A stretch of 48,237 nucleotides of DNA from Patescibacteria group bacterium (GCA_038062895.1 JBBTWJ010000011.1:1-48237); one strand, 5' to 3'; shown: positions 4,020-43,133, numbered from the stretch's first letter. Numbers and translations are program-made. The notes: generated by a model not told the origin, from the letters alone.

Positions 4020-5843
4020 ATGAGAGATAAAGTATTTGGTTTCCTCATTATCCTCTTTCTTGCGGCCTCCCTTGCCCCTGCGTACTACGAGATCATCCAC
4101 GCTGATCGCTTGCCACCGATCCGCGAATTTGAACTCGTCCACAACTTTCCCACGGATTTTAATTTTTATTTATCAAGAATCCGGCAGGGGATAGAAGGCA
4201 ACATCACTGTTAAAGAGCAATATACCAGCGAGCCCCATCAGGGATCATTCATCCACATTTTTTATCTCTTTTTAGGCTGGCTTGGGGCTTGGGTGCGGGT
4301 TCCCTGGCACCGGGCCGCGGACGTGTACCACGTGGCCCGTATTGTCTTCGGCGGCCTCCTCCTCGTCCTGATTGCCCAGTTTTGCAAGAAAACATTTGAA
4401 ACGTGGAGGGTGTCATCCTCGGGCTTGACCCGAGTATCCAGTTTAAAACAAATTCTGGATTCCCGCCCGCTTCGACTCAGCGAGGCGAGCTTTCGCGGGA
4501 ATGACAGCTTAGGTATTCTTGCCTTCCTGCTCTCCGTCACCGCCTCCACTTGGCCCAAGATTGTGGCCGTTATAAACAACCAGGTCGTCCCGGCAACGCT
4601 TGCCAATATCACCAGCTGGCGGTTCGGCGGCTACATGCCATGGTGGTCCGTCATGGATTCGCTCCAACGGATCACGTTCATCCCGCACCTCCTGGTCGGC
4701 CAGGCGCTCATTATCTTTTTCGTTATGGCGCTTAGTGATGAAGCGACCATGAAAAAGTCGGGCAACTGGATATTTTTGGGAATTATTACGTTTATCGAAG
4801 GCATCATCTTCCCTCCGGGATTATTATTTATCATTGTCACCATTGGCGCCCTATCATGCCTTGAACTGTCAAATAATCTCAAATTGTTAGCTTCGCAAGG
4901 CCTGGCCTTGCGAAGCTGGATCATAAAAATTATGATCCCCCGCGCTGTGGCGCTCGGCCTGGGCTTGCCCTCCCTTATCTACCTCTCCCTCATGACCTCC
5001 TTTTATCCGTGGAAGCGGCTCGCCGAGTTTGACATCATCAAACCCCTGCCGTTTGACTACATAGAGTATTTGAAGGCTGTCGGACCCATTCTTCCCTTGG
5101 GAATTATCGGACTTCTGGTCGCGTTGAAAATGAAAGAACGTCGGATGTTTCCGGCCGTCGCCTGGGTCATTGCGTGGGCACTGCTTCTTTTTATTTTCAA
5201 ATTCATCCCTGCCCAGTCACCCCTCCGGTTTAGTGAAATGATCCCGCACGTCCCGCTGGCCGTTCTGACGGCATACTTATTCTGGTGGGGATTAGGGGCG
5301 AGTATAAAGTATTTAGGAAGAGGTAGAATCATTCTTGCCTATATACTAAATACTATACCCTTACTCCTCATTATTCTCGGCTTGGGCATCATGTTTTCCT
5401 CCTTCCTTTGGCAGCGTGATTTTGTCGATCATAAGATGCGGGCGGCCTTCCCCCTGGTCCCTACCGGCAGTTACGTCATGTATCCGCTCAAGGATTTTAT
5501 CTCGGCCATCCGTTTTATCCAGGATGCCACGACGCGCCAAACCATCATCCTTTCGGAAACCACGGCGGGCAACTATATGCCGGTGTATAGCGGCAATACG
5601 GTCTATGTGGGGCACGCCAATACGGTCCGCGCTGAAGAGAAGGAGGCGAAGGTCAAAGAGTTTTTTTCCGGCCGCATGAAACCCGCAGAAACAGAAGCGT
5701 GGATGACCCACGAAAATCTTCATTGGGTTTTCTACGGCCCACAGGAGAAAGAGGACGGGGGGATAGGGGACCTCGCAAAAGTTTACCCGTTCATGCAGCA
5801 AGCATATAAAAATTCTTTTGTGACGGTGTACCGGTATCCGTAA
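4020..5843 (+). CDS. Multi-pass membrane protein, probable GT-C glycosyltransferase
   Basis: 607 aa; DFNFYLSRIRQG and YTSEPH motifs; C-terminal MPVYSGNTVYVGH; paralog of 2112. Confidence 0.6.
   Translation: MRDKVFGFLIILFLAASLAPAYYEIIHADRLPPIREFELVHNFPTDFNFYLSRIRQGIEGNITVKEQYTSEPHQGSFIHIFYLFLGWLGAWVRVPWHRAADVYHVARIVFGGLLLVLIAQFCKKTFETWRVSSSGLTRVSSLKQILDSRPLRLSEASFRGNDSLGILAFLLSVTASTWPKIVAVINNQVVPATLANITSWRFGGYMPWWSVMDSLQRITFIPHLLVGQALIIFFVMALSDEATMKKSGNWIFLGIITFIEGIIFPPGLLFIIVTIGALSCLELSNNLKLLASQGLALRSWIIKIMIPRAVALGLGLPSLIYLSLMTSFYPWKRLAEFDIIKPLPFDYIEYLKAVGPILPLGIIGLLVALKMKERRMFPAVAWVIAWALLLFIFKFIPAQSPLRFSEMIPHVPLAVLTAYLFWWGLGASIKYLGRGRIILAYILNTIPLLLIILGLGIMFSSFLWQRDFVDHKMRAAFPLVPTGSYVMYPLKDFISAIRFIQDATTRQTIILSETTAGNYMPVYSGNTVYVGHANTVRAEEKEAKVKEFFSGRMKPAETEAWMTHENLHWVFYGPQEKEDGGIGDLAKVYPFMQQAYKNSFVTVYRYP
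4411..4506. repeat. Family C element with nested insert, in-frame
   Basis: TGTCATCCTCGGGCTTGACCCGAGTATCCAG...CTGGATTCCCGC[CCGCTTCGACTCAGCGAGGCGAGC]TTTCGCGGGAATGACA. Confidence 0.85.
4889..4917. repeat. Family A 29-bp REP palindrome, in-frame (LASQGLALRS)
   Basis: AGCTTCGCAAGGC-CTG-GCCTTGCGAAGCT. Confidence 0.95.
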
Positions 5844-5857
5844 GATTTTTTTAGGTT

Positions 5858-6613
5858 ATGTCCGCTACATATAGCGTATCGCATTATCGGGAGATCGCAA
5901 AGGTAGATGCCCAGCATTTCTGGTTTCGCGCGCGCGGGGCTATGCTTACTGCGCTTATCAAACAGTTGGTACCAAAAGACAAACGGGGTTCGTTTTTAGA
6001 AGTTGGCTGTGGGACCGGCATCGTGTTGGGGCAATTACAGGCTTTGGGTTTTAGTGTCACAGGGTTGGACGTCAATCAAACGGCGTTGGATTGGGCGAAG
6101 CGCAAGTGTCCGGACGCGCATTTGATCCGTCAATCAATTTATTCCTTTACCAGTCCGCACCGGTTTGGGGCAGTCGGTGCATTTGATGTTCTGGAACACC
6201 AGACACAGGATGTCCTATTTTTGAAACGGTGTTGGGCATTGTTAGAAAAGGAAGGGACGCTCTTTCTTACGGTGCCTGCGGGTCAGTGGCTCTGGAGCAG
6301 GATTGATGTGATATCGGGGCATAAGCGGCGGTATGAGGTAGAGGATCTGCGGGAGAGGCTGCGTATCGCGGGGTTTCATGTGCAGTTTATGAATTATTGG
6401 AATGTTTTTCCTTTGCCATGGTATATGCTTTTTCGGATCTATGCCACCCATCAAAGGTTTGTTCCGACCGTGCCGATGTACCTCCATGTGCCCAATGGTT
6501 TTATCAACACCCTGTTGTATTATTTGTTACGGGTAGAACAATTGTTATTTTTTACACTCCCGTTTCCCCGGGGCGCGACACTCGTCGTATGCGCTAGGAA
6601 AGTGACGTCATGA
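5858..6613 (+). CDS. Class I SAM-dependent methyltransferase
   Basis: FLEVGCGTG motif I, FDVLEH, TVPA...GHKRRY; typical of glycan-cluster methyltransferases. Confidence 0.85.
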   Translation: MSATYSVSHYREIAKVDAQHFWFRARGAMLTALIKQLVPKDKRGSFLEVGCGTGIVLGQLQALGFSVTGLDVNQTALDWAKRKCPDAHLIRQSIYSFTSPHRFGAVGAFDVLEHQTQDVLFLKRCWALLEKEGTLFLTVPAGQWLWSRIDVISGHKRRYEVEDLRERLRIAGFHVQFMNYWNVFPLPWYMLFRIYATHQRFVPTVPMYLHVPNGFINTLLYYLLRVEQLLFFTLPFPRGATLVVCARKVTS

Positions 6614-8886
6614 ATAAGTTCTTTGGACTGGTAAAACCGTATATTCTTCCGGTTAGTATGTATGGTCTGGTCATTGCTCTTGTTTTTGGCCGGGCACTTA
6701 TCCCCGGAGGAGGCCCGCCTGCCGGCGAGGCAGGGGAGATGATCTGGGGCGATGATATCCACCGGGCGTACTATTTTTACCGGCAGTTTTTTAATAACTT
6801 TTTGGCTCAAGGCATATGGCCGTGGTGGAACCCCTATACCTTCGCGGGGGCTCCGTTTATGGCAAACCCGATCGTGAACATCTGGTACCCGCCGACGTGG
6901 TTCTTTGTCCTGTTACCCCTCAATTTCGCGTACTCCTGGCACATCGCGCTCCACTTATTGTGGGCGATGATGGGGATGTTCATCCTGCTTCGCAAAATTC
7001 CAAATTCCAAATTCCAAATTCCAAAATTGGGCGCATGGATCGGAGGCCTCATCTTTGGCCTGTCCGGCTTCTTCGTGGCCCGCATTTGGGCCGGGCACGT
7101 GGATGTCATCGCAGCAGCCAGTTGGATGCCGTGGGTGGTGTCGGCTTTTACACAATTAATGCACGCCCAGGTCGGCGCGTCGTCATTCTCACATCGTCAA
7201 GGTCCGCGCCTTTTATCATCCCATCACGACTTTTTTGCCAAGGCCGTGACGATGTTCGAAACGTCGCGCTTCCCCGCGCGCGAATGTGTTATTGCTGCCG
7301 TTGTTCTTGCTCTCCAGCTTTTTGCCGGGTATCAGACGATGGCCATGCTGACCCTGGAGGCGGTGGGGATCATGACGGTGATCATGCTCATCGCCGGACG
7401 TGCGCCTTTGCGGATGATTGTACAAACGATTGGACGAATCGCATTGAGCGTGGGTATTGCTATCGGGCTTTTTGCAATCGTCCTTCTGCCGCAACAGGAA
7501 TTATTCCGTCAATCGATCAGGACGTATGCCTTGCCGTATTCCTGGAATGCATACGGATCACTGACGTGGCAAAGTTTGGGGCAGTTCATCAACCCCTTTT
7601 TCTTTGGGGATCAGTTGACGTACCGCGGCCCACCGCCCAATTTTGCCGAGCACGCCTTCTTTGTGGGAAGAGGGACGATACTTCTATTGATGATTGCGTT
7701 GTCTGCATGGTTTATTCGTACTATCCGCTGGATTAATCCGACCAATCCAACCAATAGCCCAATCCGACCAATTAATGCATCAATGAAGCAATGGAGCAAT
7801 GGAAGAAGTTGGCTTGTAATCTTTTCGATGATTGCAGGTTTTGGCCTTTGGGTTTCCTTGGGTCCCAATGCGCCGATTGACCTTCAATATATTCTCTGGA
7901 ATATGATCCCGATGTACCATTTTCTCCGCATTCCGCCGCGACATCTTATCCTCGTCGCCTTCGGATTAAGCGCACTCATCGGTTTGTCCGTTGCCTATTT
8001 GAGCGCTTTTTTGTCATCCCGGCCCTTGAGCCGGGATCCAGTTCAAAAAATTTTATATGTTTTTCCCATATTGTTGGCAGTGTTGATTGCAACCGAGATG
8101 ATTCTTTATTCCCGTCATTTCATCGCGCTGAAGCCATTGCCGGAAACGCGTCATGACGCGGCGTTAATCAACATATTGAAACAAGATAAACAGCCGTATC
8201 GTGTGCTCACCAATTTCGGGGCGTGGGCGCCGCCACGGGATAGTTTCGATTTTGACGCGGGGATGCAGTATGGGGTTTTCAACGCGACCGGCTACGACAC
8301 GATGATCCTCAAGACGTACTATGCATTTATTGATGCGGCAAACGGCGCAAAAAGTCCCAGCATTCTCGAGCACGATGTGCAGATCCCGTACCTCAATGTG
8401 TTTTCGAAAGCCACGGATACCCTCAATATTAAATATATTCTTCACCCGCGGGCGTATGATCCGCTCTTCGGGAGTAAGGATCCCCGGTTCCGCCTTATTC
8501 GTGAAGATGTCGCGCGTGATTACCGGCTGTATGAAAATACCAGCGCGCTCCCGCGGTTTTATTTTGTCGATAATAAAGGAGGGAGGGTGGAAATTGAGAA
8601 ATATTCACCCAATGAAATCGTGCTGACGACGCAGTCGGCGGCAGGCGCAACACTCATGAGTTCGGAAGTATATTATCCCGGATGGGAAGGATTTATCGAT
8701 GGACAAAAGGTAGACATTATGAAGGTAAATAACACATTTCGAGCACTTTTTGTCCCTTCCGGCAATCACACGGTGATCTATCGCTATTCTCCCCGGATTT
8801 TTTGGATTGGTGGGGGCATCACGTTGTGCACGATGCTTGCAATCGCTTTTTGGCTGCGTAAACGCTCGTATCGAGTCAATCTATGA
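6610..8886 (+). CDS. YfhO-family membrane protein (paralog 1)
   Basis: PWWNPYTFAGAP near N-terminus; C-terminal SEVYYPGWEGFIDG...FRALFVPSGNHTV. Confidence 0.8.
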   Translation: MNKFFGLVKPYILPVSMYGLVIALVFGRALIPGGGPPAGEAGEMIWGDDIHRAYYFYRQFFNNFLAQGIWPWWNPYTFAGAPFMANPIVNIWYPPTWFFVLLPLNFAYSWHIALHLLWAMMGMFILLRKIPNSKFQIPKLGAWIGGLIFGLSGFFVARIWAGHVDVIAAASWMPWVVSAFTQLMHAQVGASSFSHRQGPRLLSSHHDFFAKAVTMFETSRFPARECVIAAVVLALQLFAGYQTMAMLTLEAVGIMTVIMLIAGRAPLRMIVQTIGRIALSVGIAIGLFAIVLLPQQELFRQSIRTYALPYSWNAYGSLTWQSLGQFINPFFFGDQLTYRGPPPNFAEHAFFVGRGTILLLMIALSAWFIRTIRWINPTNPTNSPIRPINASMKQWSNGRSWLVIFSMIAGFGLWVSLGPNAPIDLQYILWNMIPMYHFLRIPPRHLILVAFGLSALIGLSVAYLSAFLSSRPLSRDPVQKILYVFPILLAVLIATEMILYSRHFIALKPLPETRHDAALINILKQDKQPYRVLTNFGAWAPPRDSFDFDAGMQYGVFNATGYDTMILKTYYAFIDAANGAKSPSILEHDVQIPYLNVFSKATDTLNIKYILHPRAYDPLFGSKDPRFRLIREDVARDYRLYENTSALPRFYFVDNKGGRVEIEKYSPNEIVLTTQSAAGATLMSSEVYYPGWEGFIDGQKVDIMKVNNTFRALFVPSGNHTVIYRYSPRIFWIGGGITLCTMLAIAFWLRKRSYRVNL
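6714..6734. repeat. 21-bp GC-rich mini-insert (PPAGEAG), in-frame
   Basis: CCCGCCTGCCGGCGAGGCAGG; exactly 7 extra residues relative to YfhO paralogs 2 and 3; related sequence at 32331..32352. Confidence 0.7.
6995..7022. repeat. (AAATTCC)x4 tandem heptamer inside CDS
   Basis: Four perfect copies; reads KIPNSKFQIPK. Confidence 0.9.
7161..7282. repeat. About 120-bp imperfect stem-loop element, in-frame
   Basis: Arms ACATCGTCA (7191) and TGACGATGT (7247); homologous element at 15060..15183. Confidence 0.7.
7735..7772. repeat. AATCCGACC-type array inside CDS (INPTNPTNSPIRPI)
   Basis: Reverse complement of the ATTGGTCGG family. Confidence 0.8.
8012..8041. repeat. Family C half element, in-frame
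   Basis: TGTCATCCCGGCCCTTGAGCCGGGATCCAG. Confidence 0.8.
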
Positions 8887-10511: not shown

Positions 10512-11234
10512 TTACGGGATATTGACCAAGTTTTGGATGACCGTCGCCGGTTTGGAATGGAATACATCAGCTATACGAAGATATACTAGCACTCCTATGA
10601 TCCAAAGTTTGATGAGACTCCCCACGGTATAGCCGGAGCGGCCGTACTTTCTGGATTCATGACGCACCGGAACGGATGCTATGTTTTTTGTGGCGCGCAG
10701 CACAAGACCTGGTAAATATACGAGCGATCCTTTGTACCGGCTGACTTTCCGGGCGACCACACTGGTCATGCAAAAGAAACTCGTCAAGGTGACTCCTGGG
10801 GGTTTGCCGAAAATTCCGGCCATGAGATTATGAAGCCTCGTTCCGATGCGGCGGACCGGATCCTCATTTGTTTCATATTGTCCATACACGACGTCCGCGT
10901 GTTGCGTATAGAGGGCGTTGAGAAGGACGTTTGCTTCCTCTGGTGGCGTTTGGAGATCATCATCCAGACACAAGACTACGTCTCCCTTTGCGAAGCGCAG
11001 TCCGGTGAGGAGTGCATTGTGTTGGCCGAAATTTCTTGTTAGTTGTATATATGTTATGTGTTTGTTTTTTGCAGCGAGTGTTCGGACCACGGCATCCGTG
11101 GTATCGGTTGACCCATCGTTGACACAGATGATCTCTATTTGACCAAAATTCCTCAACCTCATGATCCTCGTGGTCAGTTCGCGTACCGACGCGGCGGCGT
11201 TATAGAGGGGGATGATGAAGGAAACGAGTTTCAT
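10512..11234 (-). CDS. GT2 glycosyltransferase (ArnC/GtrB-like, polyprenyl-phosphate acceptor)
   Basis: IIPLYN, VNDGSTD, RNFGQHNA, DDDLQ.PPE. Confidence 0.85.
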   Translation of the reverse strand: MKLVSFIIPLYNAAASVRELTTRIMRLRNFGQIEIICVNDGSTDTTDAVVRTLAAKNKHITYIQLTRNFGQHNALLTGLRFAKGDVVLCLDDDLQTPPEEANVLLNALYTQHADVVYGQYETNEDPVRRIGTRLHNLMAGIFGKPPGVTLTSFFCMTSVVARKVSRYKGSLVYLPGLVLRATKNIASVPVRHESRKYGRSGYTVGSLIKLWIIGVLVYLRIADVFHSKPATVIQNLVNIP

Positions 11235-12019
11235 ATTACGTAATGCAAGACGACGTCCAATCTGGTCACTTTCGGATGGACGAGGTAGGTGTAGACGTTA
11301 AATACGGCCGTATTGTTGAGGGATATCTGTGTTTGTATGGTGGTGCGCCCCCGCTTTTTTAGCCACGAAAACAGTGAGAAATAGAGAAGTTTGCCCAAGC
11401 CTTTTCCTACGAGCTTGGGGTCAATGGCAGCAAGGCGTAAATTTGTTCCTTCCTGTTTATTTGCGATGATAAAAAATCCGGCAACAACCCCCTTGTCGTC
11501 AATAAATGCAAAGACCTCGTCGGATCCCTTCAAGCTCGACTCGACCCATCCTACGAACCGACTGTTGGACCCTCGTGAAGAAATATTTTTATCCAGATGA
11601 TAGCGGTCTGCGATGAAAGCTTTCCCAGCGATTTTCCGTAGTTCGGGGAGGTGTTTAGGGAGAGCGGGGACGAGCTGGTACTGCCGGTTTTGATGTTGTG
11701 GGAATGATTTTGGATTCCAATTGGTGAGGTCAAAAGATATTTCCACAGCTTCTTCGATTACATAGAAGCCCGAGGAAGTAAGGACATGTAAACGCTCTAC
11801 TTCAAGCGGAGAAGTTTTCAGAAACAGCAAATCGCCCTTGGTAAGGTTTAGATTTTTTTTAAGTTTTAATAGAAGGTTTTTGGCCGTCTGTTTCGATTTA
11901 AACGCAAATTCTTTGATCTCTATAGTGGTATTTTGTAAATACTTCGAGTCCCAGGGTATCAGGGCGTAGGTAAGGGAAGCGTTGCGATAAGTGATGGTCT
12001 GGGGAGTGACGTAAAACAT
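11231..12019 (-). CDS. GNAT acetyltransferase, WecD-like NDP-aminosugar acyltransferase
   Basis: IPWDS, RYHLD..I, GKGLGK acetyl-CoA motif; start moved to ATG 12019 because the longer N-terminus is REP-derived. Confidence 0.65.
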   Translation of the reverse strand: MFYVTPQTITYRNASLTYALIPWDSKYLQNTTIEIKEFAFKSKQTAKNLLLKLKKNLNLTKGDLLFLKTSPLEVERLHVLTSSGFYVIEEAVEISFDLTNWNPKSFPQHQNRQYQLVPALPKHLPELRKIAGKAFIADRYHLDKNISSRGSNSRFVGWVESSLKGSDEVFAFIDDKGVVAGFFIIANKQEGTNLRLAAIDPKLVGKGLGKLLYFSLFSWLKKRGRTTIQTQISLNNTAVFNVYTYLVHPKVTRLDVVLHYVI

Positions 12020-12081
12020 TGGACACAAGAATAGTGTGTTTTGTCTTTGTTGACAATAGCGAGGGATGAAACAGCAATTAT

Positions 12082-12110
12082 AGCTTCGCCAAGTCTGACT
12101 TGGCGAAGCT
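12082..12110. repeat. 29-bp REP variant A'; overlaps the stop codon of the GT2 gene 12109..12834
   Basis: AGCTTCGCCAAGT-CTG-ACTTGGCGAAGCT. Confidence 0.9.
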
Positions 12111-32308: not shown

Positions 32309-32362
32309 ATCAACATAGTGATCAAGTACGCCCGCCATGCCGGCAAGGCAGGTGCTTGTCCG

Positions 32363-33013: not shown

Positions 33014-33281
33014 AACGGTCTCTGAGTATTTGAGACTCCGGCATGTCGAGTATGAGGTGGGAAAAGTGTAGCGCCTCCGGCGAATAGAGCTTCATGGGCT
33101 GGGTTTGAAAGGTATCCCGTACGGTGTCTGTACCGTAATGCTTGAGCATCCAAGCGACCTGTTCCCACGTGCCAAGCGCCAGTATTTGGTGAATGATATA
33201 TGCCTTATTTTGTTGCAGGTCGAGATCATCTATTGCTGCAGATTTTAGTAGTGCCTGCATCGATTTGGGCGGGTGGGCCAT
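32982..33281 (-). CDS. DUF6922-like putative antitoxin
   Basis: LDL..NK.YII.QIL..G......W....YG pattern; overlaps the toxin start. Confidence 0.65.
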   Translation of the reverse strand: MAHPPKSMQALLKSAAIDDLDLQQNKAYIIHQILALGTWEQVAWMLKHYGTDTVRDTFQTQPMKLYSPEALHFSHLILDMPESQILRDRYDKTTPRNIG

Positions 33282-33330
33282 AGCATAATTATATCTCATT
33301 TTCTTGTCCAATGCGCTATACTTTCTTCTA

Positions 33331-34701: not shown

Positions 34702-36413
34702 ATCAATGTTAACGGAACGCCCTGCACGCTAACCGTGTAGGCAATTTTATGTTTCGGCATGTAGTCCGTCACTCCCCAGTACCGGTCAAAAAATGATTGA
34801 CGGTTGAGAACGACGACATAGTCTGCCTCATCAAACCCTTTTTTGTTGACGCGGGAGAGAAGATCCGGCCGCAGGTATTTGGCCGCCGCGTCGGGCGCCA
34901 TGAGCACATGAATGAAGCTGTCCTTCGGCGCGTTCGTGTTGAGCCAGAGCATTGCAGCTTTTTGGCTCGTCCCCCAGTACTCCACGTCGAAGTTTTTCCA
35001 GGCTCCCCGCACCCCGCCGACCAGTTCATTGAAGTAGGAGATTTGGTAGGGATGATAGCGGATGATGGGTACTATGAGCCAAAGAAATACGACTCCCGTC
35101 AGAACTCTTTGCACCATTGGACTCATGATTCTCATGTGACTCATCCGACGCATGTGATCAAGCGTTGCCGCTGCTCCTACGGCTGCAATGGCTGCCAGGG
35201 GGAATACTACTTCTTCAAAATGCCGGATGCCGTCGATGACGCCGATTTTGGGGTTGAGATAGCGGGTGAGGGGAAGGAAGAACCAGAGGAGGAGTAGTAA
35301 GAAATTTGACATTCGTTGTTTCGAAAAGAGAAAATCGCTATCGAAATGGGAAAATCGATTATCGTTTTTCGTATTTCTATTACGAATATCGAATCTCGAT
35401 ACATCAAATTTCCACTTTCCGATACGGAAAATGCTTATTCCCATTGTGGACAGTCCTACGAAGAAGAATAGTAATATAGGCAGAGGAGTGGTGACCCCCA
35501 AATACCCCAGCGCGTAGTGCCAGGGGACGTTGATGGCGCTTTTGTAGATCGTGCCGAAGTAGAGGACCTCGAGATTTTGGGTGTTATCCAGGAAGAATCG
35601 GAACATATAGACGAGCCGGTCGATCGGATGCTTCCAAAATGGCAGCCAGAGGAGGAAGGCGGCGAGGGGAGCTGTGATGAAATAAAGGAGTGGAAAATAG
35701 AAAATCGACGTAACGATATGCGAAATTCGTAATCGAAAATCGAATTTCGTTTTTCTATTCCGATTTTCCAATTTCCGTACATCGAATATCGAATTTCCGA
35801 CCATCCACACCCCTGCTATCACCGGAACCAGCAGCGTATTCACCTTTGTATTAAATGCGATGGCAAACGCGAGTGTTGCAAAGAGAAGATCTTTAATCCT
35901 TTGATAACGAGCCAGCCGCCAGAACATATAGATAGCCAAGGTAAATGCGGCGGCCTGCGGCACGTCTTTCATGTTGTTATGGAGGTCCCCCCAGTAACGG
36001 GGGAGGAGAGCAAGAAAAGCAAAACCGGCAAGAGCGGTCGTCAATCCGAATGCTTCCAGAAGAAAGAGATAGAGGATGAAGACACCAGCCGCTCCCGTGA
36101 CGATGATGGAGAGGTGGTACGCGTTATCAAACGCCAGTAACTTGAGGGTCTCATGGAAAATTTGATAGGTGATGGTGGGCGCAATCAGCATGAGCGGGCC
36201 AAAGGGCAGATCATACGTCCCGCGGGGGTCCGGCATGGTGAACGGGATATTTTTCGTGAGCGATTCTTTTAGGGGAATCCCCAGGTGGTACAGTCCGGCA
36301 AAGAAGTGATGGTGGAAGTCCCACGTGATGCCATAATCATCGATGATGGCGAGGTGTACGATGAGCAAGAGTAGCGTCAGAATGAGCCCTGTGGTAAAAT
36401 GCACTTTATTCAT
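34614..36413 (-). CDS. GT-C (GT39-like) membrane glycosyltransferase
   Basis: DYGITWD, HNNMKD, PWHY, DGIRH, HPYQ..YFN; start 36413 or 36419. Confidence 0.7.
   Translation of the reverse strand: MNKVHFTTGLILTLLLLIVHLAIIDDYGITWDFHHHFFAGLYHLGIPLKESLTKNIPFTMPDPRGTYDLPFGPLMLIAPTITYQIFHETLKLLAFDNAYHLSIIVTGAAGVFILYLFLLEAFGLTTALAGFAFLALLPRYWGDLHNNMKDVPQAAAFTLAIYMFWRLARYQRIKDLLFATLAFAIAFNTKVNTLLVPVIAGVWMVGNSIFDVRKLENRNRKTKFDFRLRISHIVTSIFYFPLLYFITAPLAAFLLWLPFWKHPIDRLVYMFRFFLDNTQNLEVLYFGTIYKSAINVPWHYALGYLGVTTPLPILLFFFVGLSTMGISIFRIGKWKFDVSRFDIRNRNTKNDNRFSHFDSDFLFSKQRMSNFLLLLLWFFLPLTRYLNPKIGVIDGIRHFEEVVFPLAAIAAVGAAATLDHMRRMSHMRIMSPMVQRVLTGVVFLWLIVPIIRYHPYQISYFNELVGGVRGAWKNFDVEYWGTSQKAAMLWLNTNAPKDSFIHVLMAPDAAAKYLRPDLLSRVNKKGFDEADYVVVLNRQSFFDRYWGVTDYMPKHKIAYTVSVQGVPLTLIYDNKLGLVSPPAFPWWKKPRLSTNVQIP
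35302..35432. repeat. Opposed degenerate heptamer arrays inside CDS
   Basis: GAAAATC/GAATATC-type units and their reverse complements. Confidence 0.7.
35691..35801. repeat. Opposed degenerate heptamer arrays inside CDS (second copy)
   Basis: GAAAATC GAATTTC...GATTTTC GAATATC units. Confidence 0.7.
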
Positions 36414-36437
36414 AGACATATTATAATCGAAAAAATT

Positions 36438-36770
36438 ATGGGGCAATATAGAGGAGAAGTCAGATTAATATTTAAGTGTCATCAGGCTGAAGCATTTGGT
36501 TGTCCGATAAAGGACCAAGGGGAATGCAAGCTTGGCTCTCGCCTAGGTGTCGAGAAAAAGGTCATTACGTTTACTGTAAACGCAAATAATACAGATGATG
36601 CGTGTAACGCTCTGGGTATTACCGCAAGAGAATACGTTGATGAACATGAAGAGGCTGTTGATACGTGTCAGAACGTTGAGGCTGTTGAGAGGTTGGCTCC
36701 GGGTTCTAAACCATCGGAAATATGCTTTGGACTCCCTCAGGTAGATTATGGATCAATTGAGCGTTTGTAA
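36438..36770 (+). CDS. Hypothetical Cys-containing acidic protein
   Basis: 110-aa ORF in a gap; TATAAT 10 nt upstream. Confidence 0.5.
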   Translation: MGQYRGEVRLIFKCHQAEAFGCPIKDQGECKLGSRLGVEKKVITFTVNANNTDDACNALGITAREYVDEHEEAVDTCQNVEAVERLAPGSKPSEICFGLPQVDYGSIERL

Positions 36771-36809
36771 CCCCTTAACCTTCCAGGTTCATTAGCTTTG
36801 AACATCCCC

Positions 36810-38552
36810 TTATTTGTATATTGATACCGTGGTATTGCTGAATACCTTCTGGAGGCTAATAGATAATCGGCGGGAAGGTGTCGTGATGATATACCCAATC
36901 CGGTGGTCTTTGAGGAATTGCGCCGCATCCTTCTTATTCATCTTTCCCCCAAAAAACTCCTGCCTTCGAGCTTCCTTCACGTCCGGATAAAGCGTATGGA
37001 TGGGGTGACCGGAGAAGGAAATTTTTTCTGTGAAGACGGGGACGAGGATTTCGATAGGGATCGTCGGATCAACCAGCACGACCTGACGCTCCATAACGGG
37101 GTTCAACCCCGTAATCCCGGCGGCAAGCTTGATTGAGTCATCGTTTTTTATCCACGTTAATGCTTCCACGATTGGCGTGGGCACGTGGTTGTAGACCGTA
37201 TCCATGAGGAGTTGGGGGTTGCGTGCCGGAGTGATTCTATCCGTGAATTGCTTGGCGAGGGGAGGGACGGTGAGGAGCAGATACATGACGATCAATATCG
37301 CGCGGATACTATTGATAGAATACTTATTTTTTAGCCGGTGATGCAGGAAGACAGATAATTGAACCAATCCGTCCACCCCGAGTATGGCGATGGCCGCGGC
37401 ATACGGCACAGGGTGTAGCATGCGCACAGGCGAAAGTTCAAGAAATCTGGGGATCGGCGAGAGAAATAATACAAAGGATATGACTCCCCAGGTGATGAAC
37501 AGGATATGCAGAGGATTTTTTTCTTTGAACACATTTCGTATTCCGAATGGGATAAAAAGCAATACCGGACCTATAGAAAGCAGGATGTTTGGGAGACTAT
37601 TGGAAGTATATTGTGCCAATTCCCAGGCGCGCGCTGCGACGAAGACATCTTGTTGGGCAAATTCCTGATTGGTCATCCATGCGCCGAAGCCGCCCGCCAA
37701 GAGAAGTATTCCCAGGGGTAGGAAATTCCAGCGGTTGCTGATGACGGTCGTCCCGCCAGCCGCAATAACAAGGAGGAGCATTTGGACAGGATTCGCTGAA
37801 CCGGCAAAAAACGCAAGCAGAATCAGGAATATCGAATGATGAATCAGGGAATAGAATAAATTGATTTTTTTCGTAATTCCTGATTTCTGCCTGCCCGCCG
37901 AAACCCCAGTGAAGGAGGGATTCCTAATTCGATCCGATGATTGTATTGACAAGAATTGGCTTACTATCATTGCCAGCAATATAAACAATATGGACTGCAC
38001 TACCTGGTAGGGTACGCCCCCAAGCCTGTTAAACACCGGCGCCGGCGAGAACCAGAATTGTCCCAGAAGTTCTCCTTGAGAAAAATTTAAAAAACTTAGC
38101 TTCGCAAGGCCAGGCCTTGCGAAGCTAATAAAATTTGTTGATGTAAGGATTAGGAGCCAGGTGGTGAGCCGGAGGAGCATATTTGTCGGATAAAGAAGCT
38201 TTGAGAGCAGATACCACGCCAGGCAAAGCACTATGACGAACAAAAACAGGCTTATGTTGTAGGTCGCAAACGGGGACAGCCCAACCCAGCTCCCGAGATG
38301 GCCTAGGGTCACGTTAAACCAGTAATACCAGGTGGACGAGGTAGGTTCGTTGGTGAAAAGTTGGTTGCTCCATACCCACCGTCCCGCGGCTCCTTGGGCC
38401 ATCTGTCCGGTGTAGAGAAAATAGTCGGCAAACGAATGGGCGATGCCGGTAAACGTTTCTCCGGGTTTATTGAGGGTCCACTGGAGGATGACGTGGAAGC
38501 TGTTGAGAATCGCAATGCCGATAGAGATTGCAAGGACTATAATGAGTTCCAT
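36810..38552 (-). CDS. Multi-pass membrane protein, probable GT-C glycosyltransferase
   Basis: DYFLYTGQMAQG, FTNEP, C-terminal GHPIHT; paralog of 2112/4020/38616. Confidence 0.6.
   Translation of the reverse strand: MELIIVLAISIGIAILNSFHVILQWTLNKPGETFTGIAHSFADYFLYTGQMAQGAAGRWVWSNQLFTNEPTSSTWYYWFNVTLGHLGSWVGLSPFATYNISLFLFVIVLCLAWYLLSKLLYPTNMLLRLTTWLLILTSTNFISFARPGLAKLSFLNFSQGELLGQFWFSPAPVFNRLGGVPYQVVQSILFILLAMIVSQFLSIQSSDRIRNPSFTGVSAGRQKSGITKKINLFYSLIHHSIFLILLAFFAGSANPVQMLLLVIAAGGTTVISNRWNFLPLGILLLAGGFGAWMTNQEFAQQDVFVAARAWELAQYTSNSLPNILLSIGPVLLFIPFGIRNVFKEKNPLHILFITWGVISFVLFLSPIPRFLELSPVRMLHPVPYAAAIAILGVDGLVQLSVFLHHRLKNKYSINSIRAILIVMYLLLTVPPLAKQFTDRITPARNPQLLMDTVYNHVPTPIVEALTWIKNDDSIKLAAGITGLNPVMERQVVLVDPTIPIEILVPVFTEKISFSGHPIHTLYPDVKEARRQEFFGGKMNKKDAAQFLKDHRIGYIITTPSRRLSISLQKVFSNTTVSIYK
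37821..37935. repeat. Opposed heptamer arrays with a nested GC-rich mini-insert (37890..37919), in-frame
   Basis: AATCAGG units / TTCCTGA units; CCTGCCCGCCGAAACCCCAGTGAAGGAGGG is related to 39116..39136. Confidence 0.65.
38098..38126. repeat. Family A REP, in-frame (SFARPGLAKL on - strand)
   Basis: AGCTTCGCAAGGCCAGGCCTTGCGAAGCT. Confidence 0.95.
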
Positions 38553-38566
38553 AGTATAGCCAAAGA

Positions 38567-38595
38567 CTGGATCCCCGATTAGATCGGGGATGACA
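38567..38595. repeat. Family C half element, intergenic
   Basis: CTGGATCCCCGATTAGATCGGGGATGACA. Confidence 0.85.
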
Positions 38596-38615
38596 AAAGT
38601 ATAGTTAAATAGTTA

Positions 38616-40289
38616 TCAAGATTCCAGCGCTGTCGCGTGGGAGTTGGTAAAAATAATTTTAAGAAACGGAAGGCCAAGCCAAAACCGTTTGATGTCGCCG
38701 TCAAATTGAGTAAAAAGAACGTAGCGGATGTTATTAGTTTTTAACCATTCTTTGGCTTCAATTGCTGTCATTTTTAATTGAAAAAATTTCATTGCTCCGG
38801 CTTTTTTTTGTTCATTATTGATCGTCGCAAACGGGTGGCCGGTGTACCCCGTGTGGCCGGAGAGGGCGGGGAGTATCGCATCCATGTGACTTGCAGGGTT
38901 AGCAAGCACGATATCGTCAAAACTTCCCGCAGTTCGTAGATACGTAAACGCCTGATATACGTCAGTAGTGAGATAGAGGAGTGGTATGCGTTCCTCGGGC
39001 TTCACGGCCAATTTTTGTCCCAGTTCCCACTTGAGGGTGGGGAGGGAGACGAGAAAAAAAAGCAAAGACAATAGGACGGTAAGAAAAGTTTTATTCATTG
39101 TCATCCTCGGGCTTGCCTGCCCGCCGAAATGGAGGGACCCGAGGATCCAGTTTATGAAATTCTGGATTCTCGCGCCTAGCGCGGGAATGACAAGGAGGGA
39201 TGCAATTGTCTCTAGCCCCACGACTCCCAGGATGCCCCATGCGGCATACATGGCGGGAAATAGGACACGGCTGTTGGAAATGCCAATGAGCTTGGGGATG
39301 GGCGAGAAATAGAGCGCGTAACAGGCGATCAGGAGGACTATTGAAAACAGTTCGATCGGGCGGGCGCGTTTGAATACAGATAGCGCCCCAATGAACCCGA
39401 TGATGCTTATCGGTCCTATAGAAAGGAGCATAAAGAGTGGCGTCGTGGTGATTTGCTGTCCTGCTTCCCAGAGTTTAGAAAGATTGTGGGGTGGTTCTCC
39501 TGAAATCAAATTATAATACCAGACAGTCGCACTCACTCCGATGCTCGTTACAAAGAGAATCACCCATGACGTTTTCTGTTTGGGGAGCATCATGATCTGT
39601 GTGACCCAGAGCGCTCCGAGAAAGATCGCACTCATGACGGGATTTAACGTGGAAAGCAAGACCAGTGAGGCCAGTGAGACCAGTAATGAAAGGAGGGCAG
39701 GAATTTTTTTTGGTCGAAGGAAAAACCAGGCATGCATAGCGAGGAGAAAAAGAAGCGTTTGGACGAGTTGGTGGGGGACGCCGCCGAGGCGGTCGAGGGC
39801 AAAGTTCGGGGTTTTCCAGAGTTGAAACGGATACCACATGGGATTACCGTTGACCCAGATATGATTGATGAGTGACGTCGCGAGGGTAGCAAAAAGAAAT
39901 CCCATCAACGTCTTGATTTTATCCTTCGGAAATGTATGAGCCACGAGAGAGGAGATCATGATTAATACGGCGAAGGAAAGGAGCATGACGGACAGGTTAT
40001 AGCTTATCTCCGGGGAAAGTCCCAACGCGCCGCCGAGTTTGCCCAGAAGTATATTGGGCCAAAAAAGAATGCTCGCGGGAGTAGATTCACTTGTATAACG
40101 ATTCAAGGTCAGCCACCCGCCATGGGCGCCCTGGAAAAATTGATTGAGGTAGAGGAAGTAATCTTCGTAATAATGCGTCGTCCCCAGATATACTTCTCCT
40201 GGCCGCGTTCCCATGACACCCGAGAGGAAATTAGCGGAGTTGGCCAGCGTCAGGATGAGGGCTATGAAGACCGCCAAGAGTGCGCCCAT
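38616..40289 (-). CDS. Multi-pass membrane protein, probable GT-C glycosyltransferase
   Basis: EDYFLYLNQFFQG, YTSE, LPALSGH..YTGHPFAT; start taken at ATG 40289. Confidence 0.6.
   Translation of the reverse strand: MGALLAVFIALILTLANSANFLSGVMGTRPGEVYLGTTHYYEDYFLYLNQFFQGAHGGWLTLNRYTSESTPASILFWPNILLGKLGGALGLSPEISYNLSVMLLSFAVLIMISSLVAHTFPKDKIKTLMGFLFATLATSLINHIWVNGNPMWYPFQLWKTPNFALDRLGGVPHQLVQTLLFLLAMHAWFFLRPKKIPALLSLLVSLASLVLLSTLNPVMSAIFLGALWVTQIMMLPKQKTSWVILFVTSIGVSATVWYYNLISGEPPHNLSKLWEAGQQITTTPLFMLLSIGPISIIGFIGALSVFKRARPIELFSIVLLIACYALYFSPIPKLIGISNSRVLFPAMYAAWGILGVVGLETIASLLVIPALGARIQNFINWILGSLHFGGQASPRMTMNKTFLTVLLSLLFFLVSLPTLKWELGQKLAVKPEERIPLLYLTTDVYQAFTYLRTAGSFDDIVLANPASHMDAILPALSGHTGYTGHPFATINNEQKKAGAMKFFQLKMTAIEAKEWLKTNNIRYVLFTQFDGDIKRFWLGLPFLKIIFTNSHATALES
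39099..39192. repeat. Family C element with 21-bp nested insert, in-frame
   Basis: TGTCATCCTCGGGCTTG[CCTGCCCGCCGAAATGGAGGG]ACCCGAGGATCCAG...CTGGATTCTCGCGCCTAGCGCGGGAATGACA. Confidence 0.9.
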
Positions 40290-40290
40290 A

Positions 40291-40578
40291 TTATGAGAAT
40301 GAAATGCGCAGATTCGTGCCCAGCGCTGCGGCGATGCGTTTGAGAAACGAAAGCGATGGGTTGCCGGACATAGCTTCCACGCGTGATATAGCCGCCTGAG
40401 AGGTTTTGACCCGTTTTGCCAAATCTCTTTGGGAAAGTTTTTTTGCGAGCCGACGCTCGATGACAGCCTTGGAGACGAGATATTCCGCTTCAGATTCCTT
40501 CCATGCTTTTCGGAAATCCGGGTCCTTGAGCCGTTCCTTGAGATCTTCTTCAAATGTATAAAATCCTTTTGTATTCAT
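40291..40578 (-). CDS. XRE-family HTH antitoxin (HigA-like)
   Basis: LSQRDLAKRVKTSQAAISRVE...NPSL..L.RIA.ALG. Confidence 0.85.
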   Translation of the reverse strand: MNTKGFYTFEEDLKERLKDPDFRKAWKESEAEYLVSKAVIERRLAKKLSQRDLAKRVKTSQAAISRVEAMSGNPSLSFLKRIAAALGTNLRISFS

Positions 40579-40586
40579 GATTGGAC

Positions 40587-40604
40587 GATATCATATATGA
40601 TATC
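40587..40604. promoter_or_regulatory. Perfect 18-bp palindrome, putative operator
   Basis: GATATCATATATGATATC overlapping TTGACT-N17-TATCGT on the - strand, upstream of the HTH gene. Confidence 0.55.
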
Positions 40605-40609
40605 AAGAG

Positions 40610-40951
40610 TCAAGACCTTTTCCATTCACCTAGGCGTTTCATGGTCGTTGCGATCTCCTTTAGTGGTGTTTCTTGAGTCTTTTTGATAAACCCATGGAGT
40701 ACGATGATCGCATGTTCGTGACGGGTCACATAGATAACGCGGATATTATCTTTTCCGAGGATTCGGATTTCCCATAACGGCAGTCCGGAGAGTTTTTTTG
40801 TGTGGGGGAGCACAGAGAGGATGCCATATTCTTTTATCTGAGAGATGATGCGTATCACTTTGGCAGCAGCATGGTTTTCCAAAGAATCCAAAAATTCTTT
40901 AAATGGATTTTTTCCGCCAGCAGAAGAATAGTAGAAAACTTCCGTTTTCAT
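40610..40951 (-). CDS. RelE/ParE-superfamily toxin (Gp49/HigB-like)
   Basis: PHTKKL.G..LWEIR, RVIY, LHGFIKKTQETP.KEI. Confidence 0.85.
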   Translation of the reverse strand: MKTEVFYYSSAGGKNPFKEFLDSLENHAAAKVIRIISQIKEYGILSVLPHTKKLSGLPLWEIRILGKDNIRVIYVTRHEHAIIVLHGFIKKTQETPLKEIATTMKRLGEWKRS

Positions 40952-40985
40952 GATCGCTTGCTATTCTATGCTACAATCTGACCTG

Positions 40986-41972
40986 ATGCAACGTACTTTT
41001 GTTGGTAAAAACATCCTGATCACCGGAGGCTTGGGGTTTATCGGGAGTAACCTGGCGATTGCTTTGGTGAACGCTGGATCGAACGTGACTATTCTCGACA
41101 ATCTCACGCCGGGGCTGGGGGGAAATATTTTTAATATTGAACCCGTAAAAGATACCGTAACGATCATCAAAAGCGATATCCGTGACGCGCGGGAGATCGC
41201 TAAGGCCGTGAAGGGCAAGGATTATATTTTTCATTTAGCCCGTCAAACCGATCATATTTTGAGTCTTACCGATCCGTTCCCGGATATAGATGTGAACATC
41301 CGCGGCACGGCGGTTCTCTTGGAAGCGTGCAAAAAATATAATGCTTCTGTCCGTTTGATCTACGCCGGGACGCGGGGGCAGTATGGGAAACAAGTGAAAT
41401 TGCCAGTGTCCGAAACGGCGCCGACCAATCCGCGCGGCATGTACGAGATTACCAATCTTACCGCCGAAAAAATGGTACTGGTCTACCATGATGTGCATGG
41501 TATCGCGTCCATCTGTTTACGGCTTACCAATATCTACGGTCCCAGAAGCCAAATGAAACACGACCACTACGGCGTCGTCAATTGGTTTGTGCGGCTTGCC
41601 ATGGAAGGGAAAACGATTCCGGTGTATGGCGACGGGAAACTCAAACGGGATTTTATTTTCATCGATGATTGTATTGATGCTATGTTGCGATGCGCCGCGA
41701 CAACGGCGTGTTACGGAGAAGTGATCAACGTCGGCCAGCCCACGGCGAGCGATTTTCTTACGCTTGCCAAAGCAATCGTTCGTGCTGCCGGATCGGGGCA
41801 GGTCAAACGGACACCATTTTCCAAAGAGCGTGCCGCCCAGGAGCCGGGCGACTTCACGAGCGATATCAGGAAAATCACGAAGCTTACCGGCTGGAAACCG
41901 CAGATGTCTCTACTGGAAGGGATCAGAAAAACTGTGGTATACTATAAAAAATATAAGGAGCGGTATTGGTGA
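40986..41972 (+). CDS. NAD-dependent epimerase/dehydratase
   Basis: TGGLGFIG, RLTNIYGPR, RDFIFIDD; YEITN in place of the canonical YxxxK. Confidence 0.85.
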   Translation: MQRTFVGKNILITGGLGFIGSNLAIALVNAGSNVTILDNLTPGLGGNIFNIEPVKDTVTIIKSDIRDAREIAKAVKGKDYIFHLARQTDHILSLTDPFPDIDVNIRGTAVLLEACKKYNASVRLIYAGTRGQYGKQVKLPVSETAPTNPRGMYEITNLTAEKMVLVYHDVHGIASICLRLTNIYGPRSQMKHDHYGVVNWFVRLAMEGKTIPVYGDGKLKRDFIFIDDCIDAMLRCAATTACYGEVINVGQPTASDFLTLAKAIVRAAGSGQVKRTPFSKERAAQEPGDFTSDIRKITKLTGWKPQMSLLEGIRKTVVYYKKYKERYW

Positions 41973-41997
41973 GGAGTACAGCGGGTTATTCGATGAT

Positions 41998-42288
41998 ATG
42001 CATGTTGATGATTTGAAAAAAAAGTTAATAGATGGTAGTTTAGGTGGCAGACAAGAACAAGCCGGACCCCATGGACTTGCCAATGCTTTCACTGGATTAA
42101 TGCTTGGTGTAGCCAGTTGCGAATTTTTACCAGAAAAAAAAGCAGAGCTCTTGAATCAGTATGGATTTGCATCGCTTCAAGAATTAAAAGATGCAATGGC
42201 AACTCTTAAAGAAGAACTCCGTTCTGAACTTACCCCTGAGGCGTTTAACGGATACTTTCGTGAAGGGACAGGAAGTAAAGAAGGATGA
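41998..42288 (+). CDS. Hypothetical protein (AT-richer orphan)
   Basis: 96-aa helical-looking ORF from ATG 41998 in a gap. Confidence 0.5.
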   Translation: MHVDDLKKKLIDGSLGGRQEQAGPHGLANAFTGLMLGVASCEFLPEKKAELLNQYGFASLQELKDAMATLKEELRSELTPEAFNGYFREGTGSKEG

Positions 42289-42341
42289 CCCTCAACGATA
42301 GTAGTAATATACGGTGATACACCTGTGGTAAGATATTTCTC

Positions 42342-43133
42342 ATGGTGAAGCTTTCTTCTCTCTCCCTCCTCATCCCGGCCTACAATGACGAGACGACGAT
42401 AGAAAAGGTCGTGGCAGAAGCTATTGCTGTGGGCAAGCGCGTGGCCAAGAAATTTGAGATTGTTGTCGTCAACGATGGATCGACGGACGCTACTGCCAGC
42501 CTCGCAAGGTACTACCTTGCGAGGCTGCACGCAAAAGGCAGACTCATTATCCACACTGTCAATCAGGGATATGGCCGGACGATTAAGGAATTGTATTACG
42601 CAGGGATATACGACTGGCTCTTTACGATCCCCGGAGATTATCAGATCGGGGCACGGGAGCTTGAGACAATAATAAATAGCCGTGGTTTTTTTCTGTCATC
42701 CCCGCGCAGGCGGGGATCCAGCCCTAAAAAGATGGATTCCCGTTTTCACGGGAATGACAACATTAGTATTCACCCTGATATGATCCTCGGCTGGCGGGTC
42801 AAGAGAAATGATCCATCCAACAGACTTCTTTCTTCATGGATATACAATACGCTCCTCCGATGGCTCTTTGGTATCACTTTACATGACATCAATTCCGTCC
42901 GGCTCATGCGCCGATCAATACTGAAGAACATAACGCTCACATCACATTCTGCCTTCGTCGACGCAGAGCTCGTCATCCGCGCTATGAAGTTGGGCTATAC
43001 TATTGCAGAAGTTCCCATTGTGCATCGCGCTAGGAGCGACGATCGCCCCGGCGGCGGCAACCAATGGGGGACGATGTGGAAAACAGTGAGGGAGATGATA
43101 AATTTTAAAATCCAGACCAATCCAGACCAATAA
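42342..43133 (+). CDS. GT2 glycosyltransferase with two in-frame palindromic inserts
   Basis: IPAYND, VNDGSTD, NQGYG, PGDYQ, HDIN. Confidence 0.85.
   Translation: MVKLSSLSLLIPAYNDETTIEKVVAEAIAVGKRVAKKFEIVVVNDGSTDATASLARYYLARLHAKGRLIIHTVNQGYGRTIKELYYAGIYDWLFTIPGDYQIGARELETIINSRGFFLSSPRRRGSSPKKMDSRFHGNDNISIHPDMILGWRVKRNDPSNRLLSSWIYNTLLRWLFGITLHDINSVRLMRRSILKNITLTSHSAFVDAELVIRAMKLGYTIAEVPIVHRARSDDRPGGGNQWGTMWKTVREMINFKIQTNPDQ
42498..42526. repeat. Family B REP, in-frame (SLARYYLARL)
   Basis: AGCCTCGCAAGGTACTACCTTGCGAGGCT. Confidence 0.95.
42694..42759. repeat. Family C element, in-frame (66 bp)
   Basis: TGTCATCCCCGCGCAGGCGGGGATCCAG...TGGATTCCCGTTTTCACGGGAATGACA. Confidence 0.9.

Follow-up and report, generated by a model that had tools for sequence, protein, structure and literature searches.

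Repetitive extragenic palindromes (REPs) are by definition located outside genes, and the REP-associated tyrosine transposases (RAYTs) are usually treated as tenants of intergenic DNA. Here we describe REP-type palindromes that lie mostly in coding DNA, together with the RAYT-like genes that they accompany, in the genome of a groundwater bacterium of the Patescibacteria. The analysis started from a contig of 48,237 bases, hereafter referred to as the window, from the first base of which all coordinates are counted. The window is an entire contig (C11) of a 1.23-Mb genome in 27 contigs (G000), and its closest proteins are those of Candidatus Gottesmanbacteria. The nearest described systems are the REPtrons (RAYT/TnpA-REP, including Escherichia coli TnpA-REP, Protein Data Bank (PDB) entry 4ER8), in which a Y1 HUH gene is bracketed by a hairpin family scattered over the genome and diverged paralogs each have a family of their own. 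The same organization is observed here. Unlike in REPtrons, however, most of the scattered copies are coding (35 of 55), the palindromes are perfect, the hairpin foot is YTAGC rather than GTAG, the copy number is low (about 60 in five families) and the proteins, of about 235 amino acids, score under the NCBIfam RAYT cut-off. The guide tetranucleotide of the RAYT class (GT[AG]G at the hairpin foot) is absent, a G preceding the foot in 1 of 28 copies of the two main families (A and B; see below). Compared with the definition of a REP, the length of 29–33 bases falls within the range of 20–40 bases, the 60 copies in five families are few, and the location is mostly not extragenic.

Rickettsia palindromic elements (RPE-1) are similar in being palindromic repeats translated in frame within housekeeping proteins. 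RPE-1 is several times longer than the 29–33-base elements described here, and, to our knowledge, no enzyme has been assigned to it, whereas each family here lies beside a RAYT-like gene.

Short palindromes within genes have precedents in other lineages. Intragenic REPs are reported for several species, with the highest numbers in Opitutus terrae (GTAG REPs) and Rickettsia conorii (CGTC REPs, equated with RPE-4 and RPE-6), in the available portion of Di Nocera, De Gregorio and Rocco (2013; PMC3733652), which also names RPE-1. As here, those REPs are short, in frame in functional genes and often dimeric, and occur in species that possibly carry RAYTs; in that portion, however, the intragenic copies form a minority, many of them in DNA replication and repair genes, whereas here they form the majority. 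In tnpA-REP subclass 2.4, as described in the available part of Quentin, Siguier, Chandler and Fichant (2018; PMC6006769), the RAYT gene carries in-frame copies of its own REP with the frame intact, again as here. The internal copy in our case lies after the Y motif (residues 169–178 of 238), which is not the position that characterizes the subclass, and the subclass signature (NH[IFV]H, WQ and YIxNNP) differs from NHFH, FQ and YIHRNP here. The printed motifs and length of subclass 2.1, likened by description only, are closer; in the same part of that paper subclass 2.1 is tabulated without REPs. REPIN–RAYT populations (REPINs being inverted REP doublets) are alike in that a long-persisting repeat population is tied to a single-copy RAYT, but REPINs are described in the available text of PMC8049555 as lying in intergenic DNA, whereas the elements here are mostly single coding hairpins, with family B also forming doublets.

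REPs have therefore been published for other lineages both within ordinary genes of species that carry RAYTs (PMC3733652) and within tnpA-REP genes themselves (PMC6006769). The premise that no enzyme is defined for in-frame palindromes, which entered the initial annotation of the window made from its sequence alone, is accordingly not supported. What is distinctive here is that coding sites predominate, that the DNA is strongly conserved where orthologous coding sites are compared, that there are hints of homogenization within genomes and that native codons are overwritten. Within the literature library searched, no paper was found on REP/RAYT systems in Patescibacteria. We regard it as probable that the palindromes are REP-type hairpins of RAYT-like Y1 HUH enzymes, carried as old, tolerated passengers within the genes of an approximately 90%-coding genome, and not a device for diversifying the sugar coat.

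Palindromes and RAYT-like genes in the window

Family A is a 29-base perfect palindrome (AGCTTCGCAAGGCCWGGCCTTGCGAAGCT) found at six sites in the window (4889, 15930, 19620, 19851, 20411 and 38098). Family B has a similar stem and the loop TACTA, and is found at five sites (22594, 25721, 26292, 30105 and 42498). Neither was recovered in 100 shuffles of the window. Three additional families are represented (C at 1543, F at 626 and D at 12082 and 21449), and the palindrome unit is 29–33 bases long. Computed as single-stranded DNA, the hairpins have energies of −14 to −18 kcal/mol (z-scores of −7 to −9). The base 5′ of the AGC foot is T in 21, C in 6 and G in 1 of 28 family A and B copies, giving a (T/C)AGC foot. 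The 5′ flanks of these copies are T-rich, from which no target motif is drawn.

Two RAYT-like genes are present. RAYT-A (19669–20385, minus strand) encodes a Y1 HUH transposase-like protein of 238 amino acids with the motifs NHFH, FQ and YIHRNP; RAYT-B (25804–26499, plus strand) encodes one of 231 amino acids. They match PF01797 with 32.1 and 39.4 bits, respectively (cut-off 23), and are 60% identical to each other, with NHFH and RYIHRNP invariant in both. The AlphaFold model of RAYT-A (predicted local distance difference test (pLDDT) score 84.5) has as its top PDB fold match 4ER8, in which E. coli TnpA-REP is bound to a REP hairpin (E 7.6e-7; template modelling score 0.59 on target), followed by IS200/IS605 transposases. 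The relationship to 4ER8 comes from the fold search alone; a phmmer search of RAYT-A against PDB sequences returned no transposase.

Both genes are framed by, and contain, their own palindrome. Upstream of RAYT-A is an intergenic family A copy (20411–20439), and the downstream flank is the copy at 19620–19648, which at the same time forms the final ten codons (LASQGLALRS) of a YfhO-like coding sequence (CDS; 17428–19650) whose stop codon overlaps the last palindrome base. A third copy (19851–19879; LASQGQALRS) is in frame within RAYT-A between the YIHRNP and WEYSSY motifs, and falls within a low-confidence linker of the AlphaFold model (residues 166–171). RAYT-B is preceded by a family B copy with an inverted half copy (25721–25766), which begins inside the stop codon of the CDS at 24646–25722. 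It contains an in-frame copy (26292–26320; LASQGTTLRS) at a position homologous to 19851, and is followed immediately past its stop codon by a partial copy (26503–26525).

The remaining family A and B copies are scattered over other genes. Family A is in frame at 4889–4917 (LASQGLALRS) in the CDS at 4020–5843 (plus strand), at 15930–15958 (SFARPGLAKL) in a YfhO-like CDS (14484–16901, plus strand) and at 38098–38126 (SFARPGLAKL) in the CDS at 36810–38552 (minus strand). The first and last of these hosts are membrane proteins of 13 transmembrane segments without a Pfam family, and the 4889 copy falls between predicted segments of its host. Family B is in frame at 30085–30133 in a PMT_2 CDS (29524–30783), where a half copy at 30085 abuts a full copy at 30105 (FARYYLAASQGTTLRG; ASQGTTLR at 30105), and at 42498–42526 (SLARYYLARL) in a GT2 CDS (42342–43133), where it replaces a native helix. 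At 22594–22639, a family B variant with a half copy forms the 3′ end of the CDS at 21467–22603, and the variant base provides the TAA stop of the host. As for the other families, C (AGCCTCAAAAGGTCTCACCTTTTGAGGCT) at 1543–1571 (QPQKVRPFEA) and F (core CTCAAGGC-N3-GCCTTGAG) at 626–648 are both in frame in a PMT_2 CDS (193–2025, minus strand), and D lies at 12082–12110, between genes or at the start of the CDS at 11231–12148, with a second copy at 21449–21477.

Six of the sites had been listed in the initial annotation: those at 4889, 15930, 19620, 38098 and 42498 stand as given, whereas 30085 is just a half copy, the full one being at 30105. The copies within the RAYT genes (19851 and 26292), the stop-donating copy at 22594 and the families at 1543, 626 and 12082/21449 had been missed. 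The claim that the listed copies lie inside CDSs holds, with the qualification that the 19620 copy is both the tail of its host and a flank of RAYT-A. The further observation that one DNA sequence is read in two frames was also borne out (LASQGLALRS at 4889 and 19620 versus SFARPGLAKL at 15930 and 38098; ASQGTTLR at 30105 versus LARYYLAR at 42498).

Cognate pairing of palindromes and RAYT-like genes

The genome has nine RAYT-like loci. The paralogs are 34–73% identical to RAYT-A, that is, they are single diverged copies and not identical insertion sequence copies, and all nine retain the N-H-x-H (NHFH or NHVH) and Y-I-x-x-N-P motifs. Own-family hairpins are found both upstream and downstream of RAYT-A, RAYT-B and the paralogs on contigs C7, C23 and C22. 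An in-frame palindrome of the gene's own flanking family is located between YIHRNP and SSY in six of the nine genes; the other three lack one, and a classical NPIEAGLAKSLEDYLWSSY segment is present in one of these. Flanking and internal copies link each of the families A, B, C and F to a single RAYT paralog, whereas for family E the link is an internal copy alone. Among 19 RAYT loci of related genomes, a perfect internal palindrome is present in eight, and in six of these eight it matches the flanks of its own gene, with a sequence that differs from locus to locus. The protein family as a whole comprises at least 7,815 proteins (E 1e-10 or better).

Two observations were made in genomes of two other genera (G019 and G020). 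At one locus (L004, G019:C33), the internal copy deviates from the flanking palindromes exactly at the base where a perfect palindrome would give an in-frame TGA, indicating that the internal hairpin is constrained by the reading frame. The exact family A 29-mer also flanks RAYT homologs of just 61–71% identity in these genera (L003, G020:C7; and G019:C61), and the hairpin sequence is thus far better conserved than the enzyme.

We then compared four genomes of one genus (G000 and its relatives G001, G002 and G003; completeness 86–94%). The exact family A 29-mer occurs 13, 0, 10 and 7 times in G000, G001, G002 and G003, respectively; RAYT-A is found in G000 and G002 (84% identity) and is missing at the syntenic site of G001. 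The 17-base core of family B occurs 25, 0, 0 and 10 times, with a RAYT-B ortholog in G000 and G003 only (77% identity). For the core of family C the counts are 10, 2, 12 and 3, with a RAYT-C ortholog in G000 and G002 only (88% identity). At the G002 site syntenic to window 25721–26545 (L035, G002:C17), the entire family B REP–RAYT–REP unit is absent, leaving a clean junction that on the left falls within the stop codon of the gene upstream; the whole unit was therefore gained or lost. In G001 (L034, G001:C6; compare window 19650–21000), a deaminase gene directly follows the YfhO-like gene, and RAYT-A and the neighbouring DUF2000 gene (20514–20984) are thus both missing there. That the palindromes are cognate to the RAYT-like genes beside them, as the initial annotation had proposed, is therefore well supported by the flanking and internal own-family copies and by co-occurrence over the four genomes.

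Age and conservation of the embedded copies

Orthologous sites were found filled, empty or switched. The 4889 site is filled in G000, G002 and G003, carries another palindrome at the identical codon position in G001 and is empty in the G020 ortholog. The 15930 site is filled with an identical sequence in G000, G002 and G003, and the copy is missing in the G020 ortholog. At 19620, the G002 copy is in another frame, and G001 has a different C-terminal tail with no palindrome. The 38098 site is filled in G000 and G002 (identical), has a 15-codon gap in G003 and has no copy in the G020 ortholog, which is seven codons shorter. At 30105, G000 and G003 have the copy whereas G001 and G002 have an empty site, and at 42498 only G000 of the four genus genomes has a copy; these two sites are the youngest. 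For family F at 626, the G002 ortholog has no copy at that place. The family C site at 1543 is filled in all four. Several insertions are older than speciation. At the family B doublet (30085–30133), we also noted that the 6-base spacer between the hairpins is inverted between G000 and G003 (L029, G003:C65; AGCCTC versus GAGGCT), both forms being in frame.

The DNA of these copies is strongly conserved. Between G000 and G002 or G003, orthologous palindromes differ at 2 of 145 bases and their flanks at 250 of 1,188 (155 of 397 third codon positions; Fisher P 1e-11, for sequence pairs that are not mutually independent). Together with the use of two frames, this confirms that it is the DNA and not the peptide that is conserved. 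The six window host open reading frames (ORFs) are stop-free and align near end to end with orthologs in the three same-genus genomes (60–77% amino acid identity), in keeping with the earlier claim that all of them are open; with differences concentrated at third codon positions in the flanks, the hosts are under purifying selection. In G001, by contrast, the orthologous copies have drifted, with 9, 12 and 5 of 29 bases differing. Two of the G001 copies still pair at 10–11 of 12 stem positions through compensatory and G–T changes, and one resembles a different family at the same codon.

The palindrome at the 1543 site is perfect in G000, has one T–G mismatch in G002 (as in 9 of 12 G002 copies), has a GGC/GCC form in G003 that is common to another G003 copy, and is degenerate in G001. 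These own-genome variants look like concerted evolution, with a recurrent mutational hotspot as an alternative. A stronger version, that embedded copies are actively held to the current family sequence by cognate-RAYT-dependent conversion or same-site re-copying, able to overwrite native codons without a change in length, is something we put forward tentatively and do not favour. Hints in its direction are the 1543 variants, the other palindrome at the G001 4889 site, family A being frozen in G002 and G003 but drifting in G001, where the RAYT-A site is empty, and the replacement of a GT2 helix with a net gain of one codon (see below).

The same observations bear on the best-surviving alternative, in which the hairpins are DNA or mRNA structures useful to the host (in pausing, stability or topology) and are selected in place, the RAYTs being domesticated caretakers or mere sharers of the motif, and spread occurring by conversion or recombination. 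Conservation of orthologous copies far beyond that of synonymous sites would be expected from such selection, as would the stem pairing retained in G001, where RAYT-A was not found. The own-genome variants at 1543 in G000, G002 and G003 fit conversion, and the copy that overwrites native codons without added length is compatible with it as well. However, the copies have no consistent position relative to gene features of a kind that would point to regulation and occur mid-gene in unrelated proteins, entire families are gone where the RAYT is gone, and an Rfam search of the whole window gave no family at gathering score. We therefore consider this explanation rather unlikely, and prefer REP-type hairpins carried as tolerated passengers.

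Genomic distribution and host genes

Genome-wide, 60 copies in five families were counted, of which 40 are wholly genic, 11 are at gene ends and 9 are intergenic, by our own gene calls (1,193 genes, 90% coding), which are crude beyond the window. Once the five copies within RAYT genes are set aside, the numbers are 35, 11 and 9 of 55. Because a random 29-mer would be wholly genic in 88% of cases (P 3e-6), coding DNA is under-used relative to chance, although it holds most copies. Two of the 35 genic copies are within the first 15 codons of their ORF, possibly upstream of the true start. Genic family A and B copies use the reading frames 10, 6 and 0 times of 16, that is, two of three open frames (P 0.0015), and stop-containing frames are never used by genic copies.

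Copies of some families lie close to their RAYT. Outside the REPtrons, 11 of 20 family A and B copies are on the two RAYT-carrying contigs, although these account for just 8.2% of the genome length (P 1e-7), and family C behaves similarly, with 4 of 8 copies on 1.7% (P 6e-6).

This distribution is relevant to the proposal, made in the initial annotation, that surface-glycan enzymes are the targets of the palindromes and may be diversified by them. The six window hosts are two YfhO-like proteins, one PMT_2, one GT2 and two polytopic membrane proteins without a family, such that four of the six would suit this proposal; family A and B copies outside the window are also hosted by a Wzy_C protein and a GT4 protein, and the host at 4020–5843 has GT-C-like neighbours in a protein atlas (a lead only). 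However, among the non-window hosts, for which Pfam matches were obtained for 15 of 20 scanned, are LepA, an M16 peptidase, RecR, the RNase P protein, a class I aminoacyl-tRNA synthetase, a polyprenyl synthase, PfkB, DegT and a methyltransferase. This breadth argues that the palindromes are not aimed at glycosylation enzymes: the genome-wide count by location and gene category that the annotation had suggested returns, among the hosts scanned, mixed categories with no glycosylation focus, and two of the six window hosts themselves have no family. The genes that host family A copies close to the RAYT of contig C7 are those of LepA and M16 peptidase. The window pattern is better explained by distance to a RAYT than by gene category; glycan genes are concentrated among the window hosts because RAYT-A and RAYT-B sit inside a glycosylation gene island, and not by virtue of a glycan-diversification function. 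Diversification is also at odds with the fixation of the insertions, those at 4889, 15930 and 1543 being common to species whose flanks differ by about 20%, and no variant alleles were seen in four metagenome runs, in which contigs break at the palindromes. On balance, targeting to glycan enzymes is very improbable, and hairpins that spread from a nearby RAYT account better for the window.

Placement within host proteins

In the membrane hosts, the palindromes fall within short hydrophilic stretches that connect predicted membrane helices, or within a C-terminal tail. The GT2 protein is different. In its AlphaFold model (pLDDT 86.8), the residues encoded by the 42498 copy (51–60) form a helix with a pLDDT of about 93. 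In the corresponding columns, 36 of 39 aligned homologs have no palindrome and have a native helix of the type LVxLAKK, and codon alignment shows native codons in the G001, G002 and G003 orthologs, with a net gain of one codon in G000. The hairpin has thus taken over native codons, in a confidently modelled helix of the Rossmann-like fold, without any loop lengthening, which counts against the earlier generalization that copies are dispersed into loops.

Two further changes were observed in GT2. The G001 ortholog (L031, G001:C105) has no family B copy at the 42498 site, but a family E palindrome (DSGNPKDSRN) is present as a 13-codon insertion two codons further downstream; the same region was thus hit twice by different families. 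A second insertion in GT2 (residues about 118–140; window 42690–42760), some 30 residues that most homologs lack, is predicted to be disordered (pLDDT <50) and overlaps a two-hairpin repeat described below.

Net lengths are uneven. The 15930 copy adds about ten codons relative to paralogs and the G020 ortholog, the LepA copy nine relative to solved EF4 and the RecR copy eight. Overall, the differences relative to orthologs, paralogs and solved homologs are +10, +9, +8, +7, +6 and +1 codons, and no inserted unit or target duplication is definable. Ortholog alignment, which had been suggested as a way to find empty alleles and define junctions, did deliver the former (30105 in G001 and G002) but not the latter. 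The spread of sizes points to imprecise events of which those in frame were kept, or to subsequent adjustment.

Proposed spread of the palindromes

A scheme consistent with these results is as follows. Each of several diverged RAYT paralogs has a palindrome family of its own, with copies before, after and in frame inside the gene. The RAYT would recognize and cut its hairpin on single-stranded DNA and seed new copies which, for families A, B and C, would land mostly within some tens of kilobases of the RAYT gene. With intergenic DNA scarce, most landing sites would be coding. To survive, a copy would need a net change that is a multiple of three, a stop-free frame, a tolerable peptide and a permissive place in the protein (seen here as short stretches joining membrane helices, as C-terminal tails and, in one case, as a replaced surface helix), other events being removed by selection. 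Fixed copies would then outlast speciation, kept to the current family sequence by hairpin selection or by conversion, possibly RAYT-dependent, and would drift once the cognate RAYT is gone. Catalysis by the RAYT, the way in which copies are made and the reason for their homogeneity are supposed in this scheme, whereas the anatomy, frames, age, DNA conservation, co-occurrence with RAYTs and clustering were observed.

Several observations weigh against it. G003 is discordant, with seven exact family A copies and RAYT-A not found in an 88%-complete assembly, in which the relevant contig ends at the expected RAYT-A position. Cross-genome co-occurrence is support and not proof, because the genomes are kin and incompletely assembled. 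RAYT-A and RAYT-B score 41 and 45.9 bits against the NCBIfam RAYT equivalog NF047646, below its curated cut-off of 80, and the hairpin foot is YTAGC and not GTAG. For families E and F no clustering around the RAYT is seen (0 of 8 in each family), and the genome-wide counts rest on crude gene calls. Because net lengths are uneven, a simple fixed-size insertion fails for some copies. The stem pairing retained in G001, where RAYT-A was not found, could reflect RAYT-independent hairpin selection. Finally, no activity, transposition event or filled/empty polymorphism within one population was seen, public contigs breaking at the palindromes. In four public groundwater runs, Logan contigs were compared with window 25001–45000; the contigs of a run with identical sequence stop at palindromes (25747, 26318, 30117, 38123 and 42526), and as contigs break there, the finding of none that bridge an empty allele is uninformative on presence/absence variation.

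Movement of the palindromes by another nuclease of the genome, for example a small GIY-YIG nuclease, with the RAYT association being secondary, would be in line with the several further in-frame repeat families that have no RAYT link. However, four of the families (A, B, C and F) each flank one RAYT paralog and recur inside it (E only inside), and A, B and C are tied to RAYTs by cross-genome presence and absence as well, which leaves little probability for this explanation. The idea that conservation acts on the repeated peptide as a protein motif, with the palindrome as its by-product, is scarcely credible: ASQG..LRS-like peptides do occur at the same place in many RAYT homologs, but the same DNA is read in two frames as unrelated peptides, 20 copies are intergenic (9) or at gene ends (11), synonymous positions within the palindrome are frozen, and the internal copy of L004 departs from its flanks exactly at the would-be TGA. 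Uptake-signal-type sequences were considered and dropped, there being just about 60 copies per 1.2 Mb, in families tied to RAYT paralogs.

If the palindromes are indeed REP-type hairpins of these enzymes, a genome with near-zero intergenic space would host a REP/RAYT-type system that lives mainly inside genes, essential ones included. The copies provide a natural data set on what keeps REPs uniform and on the tolerance of folded and membrane proteins for short foreign sequences, and the filled, empty and switched orthologous sites in four genomes make RAYT-dependent homogenization testable by comparative genomics. In practical terms, such repeats interrupt assemblies and make the proteins of Patescibacteria look more novel than they are.

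Other repeats and genes in the window

A distinct two-hairpin repeat, of the GTCATCCCCGCG..GGGATCCAG type, is located at 863–935, 4411–4506, 8006–8050, 42680–42735 and 44220–44265, and is translated in frame in several host genes (as SSPRRRGSS, WIPAFAGMT or LDSR..GND-like peptides). In unrelated groundwater runs, the summed contig depth over 42343–43009 and 43677–44343 is 10–25 times the local level, from which we conclude that this repeat family is widespread. Another palindrome family, AAGGCCAC(C/T)CC..GGGGTGGCCTT, lies at 1377–1445 and 3233–3285, in frame in the PMT_2 gene and the adjoining membrane-protein gene, and its central 20-mer has five genomic copies. Tandem units of 7–8 bases (AATTCCA and CCAAT-rich) are found at 2042–2085, 6994–7025, 7732–7807, 17768–17820 and 43109–43228, partly in frame within YfhO-like genes and partly intergenic. 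An AbiEii-type toxin gene (PF08843; 9832–10497) is present within the glycan-synthesis gene cluster.

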